From NCBI RefSeq assembly GCF_002854065.1, contig NZ_CP024147.1: DNA of 64,000 nucleotides. One strand, written 5' to 3'. A program made the translations under genes and the position numbers. The DNA comes from Escherichia coli. Its GTDB lineage: Bacteria; Pseudomonadota; Gammaproteobacteria; Enterobacterales; Enterobacteriaceae. The notes under the pieces were generated by a model. It made no database searches. It saw nothing but the letters and a program-made list of their open reading frames with translations, and was not told the origin of the DNA. Of this stretch, positions 52,101-53,432 are shown one piece after another (position 1 is the stretch's first letter; the number at the start of each line of letters is the position of its first letter).

Positions 52101-52191
52101 TAGACTGGCCCCCTGAATCTCCAGACAACCAATATCACTTAAATAAGTGATAGTCTTAATACTAGTTTTTAGACTAGTCATTGGAGAACAG

Positions 52192-52557
52192 ATGATTGAT
52201 GTCTTAGGGCCGGAGAAACGCAGACGGCGTACCACACAGGAAAAGATCGCAATTGTTCAGCAGAGCTTTGAACCGGGGATGACGGTCTCCCTCGTTGCCC
52301 GGCAACATGGTGTAGCAGCCAGCCAGTTATTTCTCTGGCGTAAGCAATACCAGGAAGGAAGTCTTACTGCTGTCGCCGCCGGAGAACAGGTTGTTCCTGC
52401 CTCTGAACTTGCTGCCGCCATGAAGCAGATTAAAGAACTCCAGCGCCTGCTCGGCAAGAAAACGATGGAAAATGAACTCCTCAAAGAAGCCGTTGAATAT
52501 GGACGGGCAAAAAAGTGGATAGCGCACGCGCCCTTATTGCCCGGGGATGGGGAGTAA
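52192..52557 (+). CDS. insC: IS2 InsC (OrfA, 121 aa)
   Basis: [53 protein letters not shown]... matches IS2 InsC. Confidence 0.93.
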
Positions 52558-53420
52558 GCTTAGTCAGCCGTTGTCTCCGGGTGTCGCGTGCGCAGTTGCA
52601 CGTCATTCTCAGACGAACCGATGACTGGATGGATGGCCGCCGCAGTCGTCACACTGATGATACGGATGTGCTTCTCCGTATACACCATGTTATCGGAGAG
52701 CTGCCCACGTATGGTTATCGTCGGGTATGGGCGCTGCTTCGCAGACAGGCAGAACTTGATGGTATGCCTGCGATCAATGCCAAACGTGTTTACCGGATCA
52801 TGCGCCAGAATGCGCTGTTGCTTGAGCGAAAACCTGCTGTACCGCCATCGAAACGGGCACATACAGGCAGAGTGGCCGTGAAAGAAAGCAATCAGCGATG
52901 GTGCTCTGACGGGTTCGAGTTCTGCTGTGATAACGGAGAGAGACTGCGTGTCACGTTCGCGCTGGACTGCTGTGATCGTGAGGCACTGCACTGGGCGGTC
53001 ACTACCGGCGGCTTCAACAGTGAAACAGTACAGGACGTCATGCTGGGAGCGGTGGAACGCCGCTTCGGCAACGATCTTCCGTCGTCTCCAGTGGAGTGGC
53101 TGACGGATAATGGTTCATGCTACCGGGCTAATGAAACACGCCAGTTCGCCCGGATGTTGGGACTTGAACCGAAGAACACGGCGGTGCGGAGTCCGGAGAG
53201 TAACGGAATAGCAGAGAGCTTCGTGAAAACGATAAAGCGTGACTACATCAGTATCATGCCCAAACCAGACGGGTTAACGGCAGCAAAGAACCTTGCAGAG
53301 GCGTTCGAGCATTATAACGAATGGCATCCGCATAGTGCGCTGGGTTATCGCTCGCCACGGGAATATCTGCGGCAGCGGGCTTGTAATGGGTTAAGTGATA
53401 ACAGATGTCTGGAAATATAG
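52515..53420 (+). CDS. insD: IS2 InsD (OrfB transposase, 301 aa); expressed as an InsCD fusion by frameshift
   Basis: Sequence matches IS2 InsD; DDE-type integrase core. Confidence 0.93.
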
Positions 53421-53432
53421 GGGCAAATCCAA

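Follow-up and report, generated by a model that had tools for sequence, protein, structure and literature searches.

The stretch analysed here (the window) comprises 64,000 nucleotides of Escherichia coli DNA (contig NZ_CP024147.1 of assembly GCF_002854065.1), in which a complete copy of the insertion sequence (IS) IS2 lies on the plus strand at 52101..53431, between the fabI gene and the TetR-family regulator gene eefR that heads an efflux cluster. The element opens with the canonical IS2 end TAGACTGGCC at 52101, where the left end reads TAGACTGGCCCCC, and closes with GGGGCAAATCCA at 53431, which gives a length of 1331 bp. An earlier note on this DNA had already named the element IS2 and placed it at 52101-53432; the name holds on the basis of the canonical ends, an identity of 1330/1331 positions with IS2A as annotated in E. 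coli K-12 MG1655 and protein family scores above the curated cut-offs, and so does the left boundary, while the right boundary was set one base too far. The sole mismatch with the K-12 copy falls at 52706 in orfB, in a synonymous CCC/CCA proline codon.

The internal organisation of the element follows that of IS2 throughout, and the published IS2 residue numbering for internal landmarks fits this copy (PMC3299598). The left inverted repeat (IRL) covers 42 bp starting from 5'-TA (52101..52142, plus strand, in agreement with the same numbering), and the imperfectly matching right inverted repeat (IRR) covers 41 bp ending in CA-3' (53391..53431, plus strand) and contains an outward -35-like hexamer, TGGAAA, at 53410-53415. 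Just inside IRL lie the OrfA docking site TAAATAA (52140-52146) and the extended -10 element of the IS2 promoter PIRL, TGATAGTCT (52148-52156). The plus-strand frame orfA (52192..52557) encodes the 121-residue InsC/TnpA repressor, which scored 276 bits against the NCBIfam model NF006928 'IS2 repressor TnpA' (curated cut-off 229), and the overlapping frame orfB (52515..53420, plus strand) encodes the 301-residue InsD, the catalytic part of the OrfAB transposase, with 728 bits against NF006918 'IS2 transposase TnpB' (curated cut-off 597). At the sequence level the A6G window for -1 frameshifting, AAAAAAG, is found at 52509-52515 within orfA. IS2A of K-12 MG1655 shares the 1331-bp length, the terminal repeats, orfA and orfB, the A6G window, the OrfA docking site, the PIRL extended -10 and a 5-bp duplication, and differs in location only, apart from the synonymous base mentioned above. 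On every defining feature examined the element is IS2, and the copy looks intact and is presumably active.

The element is flanked by the pentamer AATAT, with a left copy at 52096..52100 and a right copy at 53432..53436. The duplication reported in the earlier note is real and its left copy was correctly positioned, whereas the right copy had been placed at 53433-53437, a pentamer that reads ATATC. In the closest genome found, that of the Thai wastewater isolate CUWW06, IS2 is absent from this site; its allele reads GGGGAAATATCTTATAGAA and holds one AATAT only, and because of this single copy the repeat in the window is a true target duplication rather than a chance resemblance. The pentamer and its surroundings are invariant across the ST131, Nissle 1917, CE10 and O157:H7 alleles. 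Over about 62 kb, CUWW06 differs from the window by 13 single-nucleotide polymorphisms (SNPs) in 52.1 kb to the left and two SNPs in 9.9 kb to the right, with no insertions or deletions, and IS2 plus 5 bp is the only structural difference over the compared region. These collinear flanks, with 15 SNPs in all, bear out the proposal that the element arrived by simple transposition with no adjacent deletion.

Comparison with IS-free alleles, which the earlier note had recommended, was extended to 5,426 complete E. coli genomes. The reconstructed empty site (window positions 51700-52100 joined to 53437-53900), and with it the fabI-eefR spacer holding a single AATAT, is uninterrupted in 2,034 of them, and a 2.8-kb query spanning the IS was covered in one piece by none, the best matches being the two flanks directly joined. 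The island-specific 354 bp of the spacer are present in 2,043 genomes, and at most nine eef-positive genomes carry a partial or split spacer, E. coli AVS0968 being one example. Seven places matching the empty-site query and two matching the 354-bp query are located on plasmids, so that some E. coli would have fabI or spacer sequence in plasmid-borne form. The exact left junction had no match among the GTDB species-representative genomes, nor did the exact right junction among JGI metagenome contigs. The insertion was likewise absent from 24 contigs encoding an identical EefR, a weak negative given that 23 of 562 index blocks were read and that draft assemblies usually break at an IS. CUWW06 gave nine matching places for the IS-spanning query, consistent with several resident IS2 copies. 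Collinear flanks, an empty site with a single AATAT and the lack of any other carrier together identify the event as a simple, recent transposition of an intact IS2, private to this lineage and unaccompanied by rearrangement; both the element and this type of insertion are already known and ordinary.

The fact that neither junction occurs in any other public genome or metagenome contig searched is also what would be seen if IS2 had been misplaced at this site by an assembly artefact upon repeat collapse. However, the junctions are perfect to the base, and the 5-bp duplication matches the single copy at the empty site, which a misjoin does not make. We therefore regard the probability of an artefact as negligible.

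To the left of the element lies fabI (51103..51891, minus strand), an open reading frame for the 262-residue enoyl-ACP reductase, the identical gene being annotated by RefSeq in CUWW06. Its ATG, at 51891, is 209 bp from the IS, as first measured. To the right, eefR (53705..54271, plus strand) encodes a 188-residue TetR-family regulator, supported by the RefSeq annotation of an identical protein and by the Pfam domain TetR_N. The distance from the IS to its ATG is 273 bp when counted from the true IS end, not 272 bp. It is followed on the same strand by the intact genes of the periplasmic adaptor EefA (54420-55541), the RND permease EefB (55541-58648), the outer-membrane factor EefC (58652-60025) and the MFS pump EefD (60034-61197), all annotated by RefSeq in CUWW06 and named, like eefR, after PMC12817139; sapF comes next after eefD. 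The open reading frames and the collinear CUWW06 annotation thus provide a TetR regulator, an adaptor, an RND permease, an outer-membrane factor and an MFS pump at the fabI-sapF location. The cluster headed by a TetR gene, next to which the insertion had been correctly placed from the start, is therefore the published eefRABCD operon.

According to a recent description, the operon belongs to phylogroups B2, D, E, F and G and invariably occupies the fabI-sapF interval; phylogroups A, B1 and C lack it and have ycjD at that position (Pugh et al., Microb Genom 2026, PMC12817139). The E. coli Eef pump left antibiotic susceptibility unchanged, is able to export ethidium bromide, and its regulation and physiological role were stated to be unknown (PMC12817139). 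The window agrees with that description in the five genes, all with intact frames, in their order and in their position, and departs from it in carrying IS2 upstream of an intact eefR; strain ATCC 25922 has no IS within the operon or 10 kb around it, and in Shigella dysenteriae an unnamed IS stands in place of eefR and part of eefA (PMC12817139). Since both genes are intact here, an S. dysenteriae origin of the window was rejected. Without the IS, the fabI-eefR spacer measures 477 bp, and IS2 sits at the transition from about 50% to 35% G+C, the latter value applying to the AT-rich, eefR-proximal part to its right.

We then considered whether IS2, at 209 bp upstream of the fabI ATG, might insulate fabI from distal regulatory DNA or, as the earlier note had suggested, cut such DNA off, and so change fabI expression. 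A consensus scan predicted a single promoter-like site on the fabI strand, TAGCCA-17-TATAAT (51979..52007, minus strand; 10/12 consensus positions), which is invariant in five lineages and in K-12. A literature search for a mapped fabI transcription start yielded no more than an indirect remark about a FadR site, whose first base is reported to lie about 115 bp upstream of the fabI ATG, at about 52006 (PMC8115981). Alignment of the K-12-type (ycjD) and eef-type alleles shows homology that stops at window position 52014/52015, 123 bp upstream of the fabI ATG, and the K-12-type sequence past 52014 is unrelated to the eef-type. Because the K-12-type homology ends there, about 3,400 complete genomes run this essential gene with unrelated DNA beyond 123 bp, so that sequence at -209 or more distal cannot be needed for fabI control. 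Both the promoter-like site and the reported FadR site fall inside the shared 123 bp and are intact, with 94 bp separating the -35 from IS2. At the IS2 left end, the best outward hybrid, TTGTCT-18-TCTAAT, matches 9/12 positions, yet its -10 has no A at position 2, where this base is essential, so that a functional fusion promoter directed toward fabI was rejected. Inspection of the promoter, the FadR site and the outward hybrids thus gave no sequence basis for an effect of IS2 on fabI.

In favour of such an effect, the 86 bp between the K-12 breakpoint and IS2 are conserved among eef-positive lineages and include a stable hairpin. The inverted repeat behind it had been described earlier as an 8-bp repeat at 52020-52046; it exists, with arms of 9 bp, TCTGTACCG (52019-52027) and CGGTACAGA (52039-52047), around an 11-nucleotide loop (52019..52047), five bases from the homology breakpoint. 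The predicted folding energies are -20.2 kcal/mol on the plus strand (z -3.6) and -15.3 kcal/mol on the minus strand (z -3.0), and when the 209-bp spacer was shuffled, an inverted repeat of at least 8 bp turned up in 3.3% of cases. The B2 alleles, however, carry an uncompensated C>G exchange in the left arm that breaks a pair, and no U-run follows the repeat on the fabI-sense strand, for which reasons it was rejected as a conserved structured element; a search for known RNA families gave none near threshold within 51000-55000. In any case, IS2 leaves the hairpin and fabI unseparated. Taken together, a change in fabI expression caused by the insertion appears very improbable.

On the other side of the element, the consensus scan predicted a strong promoter-like site for eefR, TTTCCA-16-TATAAT (53625..53652, plus strand; 10/12), which is invariant in five lineages. 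Just downstream of its -10 lies the 18-bp palindrome TGAGAAcGATCaTTCTCA (53662..53679), whose half-sites are invariant and which is perfect in the ST131 allele. It is probably the EefR operator, and the combination of promoter and palindrome would fit the arrangement typical of autoregulated TetR genes. Both are intact and at least 194 bp from the IS2 right end. After eefR, a terminator-like hairpin (54292..54309, plus strand; -13.9 kcal/mol, z -3.5) is followed by TTATTT, suggesting that the pump genes are probably transcribed separately. A further palindrome of 20 bp, CCTCATTAAttTTAATGAGG, was noticed at 54373-54392 beside the eefA ribosome-binding site, where it may serve as another operator or form a hairpin masking this site.

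IS2 and eefR are co-oriented, and the element could in principle alter eefR, and via EefR also eefABCD, by read-through, by a hybrid promoter at its right end, or by separating the AT-rich eefR control region from DNA further upstream, for example by breaking an H-NS filament. The ends of IS2 can indeed supply promoter parts, and IS2 fusion promoters have activated acrEF, ampC and neo elsewhere, but for this the flanking DNA must offer a properly spaced -10 (PMC9330008). The requirement is strict in the minicircle, where the outward -35 of IRR pairs with a -10 in IRL across a spacer of exactly 17 bp to form the promoter Pjunc, IS2 junction promoters with other spacers being reported as non-functional (PMC3299598). 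The position of TGGAAA at 53410-53415 was deduced from this 17-bp rule with a 1-bp junction spacer (PMC3299598), in combination with the -10 of Pjunc. At the right junction of the window, TGGAAA faces ATATCT at a spacing of 17 bp, which matches 1/6 consensus positions, and TATCTT (4/6) at a spacing of 18 bp, giving a hybrid of 8/12 in total. For the -10 of Pjunc we take the six leading bases of IRL. At the IS2 right junction the consensus scan returned no promoter, and a functional fusion promoter toward eefR was rejected, since the hybrid TGGAAA-18-TATCTT is weak and wrongly spaced. Thus, the statement that IS2 ends can provide outward promoter elements is correct in general, while no usable -10 stands at the 17-bp spacing here.

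Other observations point in the same direction. When the last 150 bp of IS2 were placed before a reporter, promoter activity of this right end was undetectable, in a system in which promoters more than 150 bp away from the reporter gave no signal (PMC12095673), and the indigenous promoter PIRL is weak and repressed by OrfA (PMC3299598). The predicted eefR promoter and operator are untouched, so autoregulation would buffer extra transcription, and the terminator-like hairpin would stand between eefR and the pump genes. The window resembles the IS2/IS1-activated acrEF and the IS2-made ampC promoter in having IS2 beside the control region of an RND operon with an outward -35 in IRR (PMC9330008). 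It differs in that IS2 lies upstream of a repressor gene and not directly upstream of the pump genes, that no -10 is found at 17 bp, and that the native eefR promoter, operator and terminator, all as predicted, are located between the element and the pump genes. The suggestion of altered expression of the tetR gene and the pump operon is accordingly not supported by the sequence.

IS1 and IS5 insertions upstream of promoters relieve silencing at bgl, flhDC and fucAO, and the window shares with these cases an IS that lies in AT-rich DNA some hundreds of base pairs ahead of a promoter, although the element is another one and eefR is not known to be silenced in E. coli. The eef operon of Klebsiella aerogenes is silenced by H-NS, which together with the 35% G+C of the eefR-proximal spacer would favour such a mechanism; H-NS silencing at the E. 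coli locus was, however, deemed unlikely by Pugh et al. (PMC12817139). The clustering of IS events at eefR described below would also count in favour of an effect of IS2 on eefR and the pump genes, which we consider unlikely overall, although a weak one may exist.

Changes at the eef locus are found in other genomes as well. [quoted passage not shown] In GCA_900499115.1 (contig UIHN01000066.1, locus 3560-3660), an IS1 end, GGTGATGCTGCC, is found in the gap between eefR and eefA and starts one base past the stop codon of the former. Another contig with eefR also breaks shortly after this gene. In CUWW06, codon 21 of eefA (window position 54480) is changed from CAA to TAA (Q21*), and RefSeq annotates the gene as a pseudogene with an internal stop, whereas eefA is intact in the window; eefB of CUWW06 carries K697Q (codon 697, window position 57629), the window gene being intact. 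The two closest relatives, the window strain and CUWW06, thus each bear a different change at this locus. The independent IS events at eefR in AVS0968, GCA_900499115.1 and S. dysenteriae suggest that the eef control region might be a recurrent target of selection, and eefA Q21* in CUWW06 points the same way, toward altered or lost pump expression. That IS2 retunes eefRABCD, the 'seventh' RND pump of pathogenic lineages, through displaced upstream DNA or read-through, with the control region as such a target, nevertheless strikes us as decidedly doubtful.

Elsewhere in the window, the interval between cysB and ymiA holds a complete IS1 of 768 bp (35106-35873), flanked by the 8-bp repeat GAATTATT. 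CUWW06 has IS1 at the same place, and this copy is therefore older than the IS2 insertion.

A recent, neutral or nearly neutral insertion of IS2 is the reading best supported by these data, and we hold it with considerable confidence. As a member of the IS3 family, IS2 would have been transposed in copy-out/paste-in fashion via a minicircle, its target being an AATAT within the 477-bp fabI-eefR spacer of an eefRABCD-carrying E. coli. The insertion point appears to fall outside both predicted core promoter regions, with the fabI promoter and FadR site at least 94 bp to the left and the eefR promoter and operator at least 194 bp to the right, and neither end seems to form a usable IS-flank fusion promoter. 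We infer from the predicted promoter positions that expression of the neighbouring genes is left as it was, the consequence of the insertion most likely being none or very small. Several points weigh against a neutral insertion. The scan found no terminator-like site between the orfB stop and eefR, and weak read-through from the OrfA-repressed PIRL could reach eefR. By analogy with the H-NS-silenced operon of K. aerogenes, loss of the upstream context could matter in a spacer of such low G+C content. Finally, the independent IS1 events at eefR and the IS of S. dysenteriae could reflect selection and not chance.

In itself the insertion is of little import, and it adds a precisely delimited, recent IS2 beside an efflux operon that was described only lately and is still poorly understood. 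The window strain and CUWW06, separated by 15 SNPs over 62 kb and by eefA Q21* in the latter, constitute near-isogenic natural variants at the eef locus, and this pair could serve to test whether the spacer upstream of eefR takes part in controlling eefR or eefABCD. Work on EefR may likewise draw on the map obtained for the fabI-eefR spacer, in which the homology breakpoint, the promoter-like sites and the probable operator are placed.
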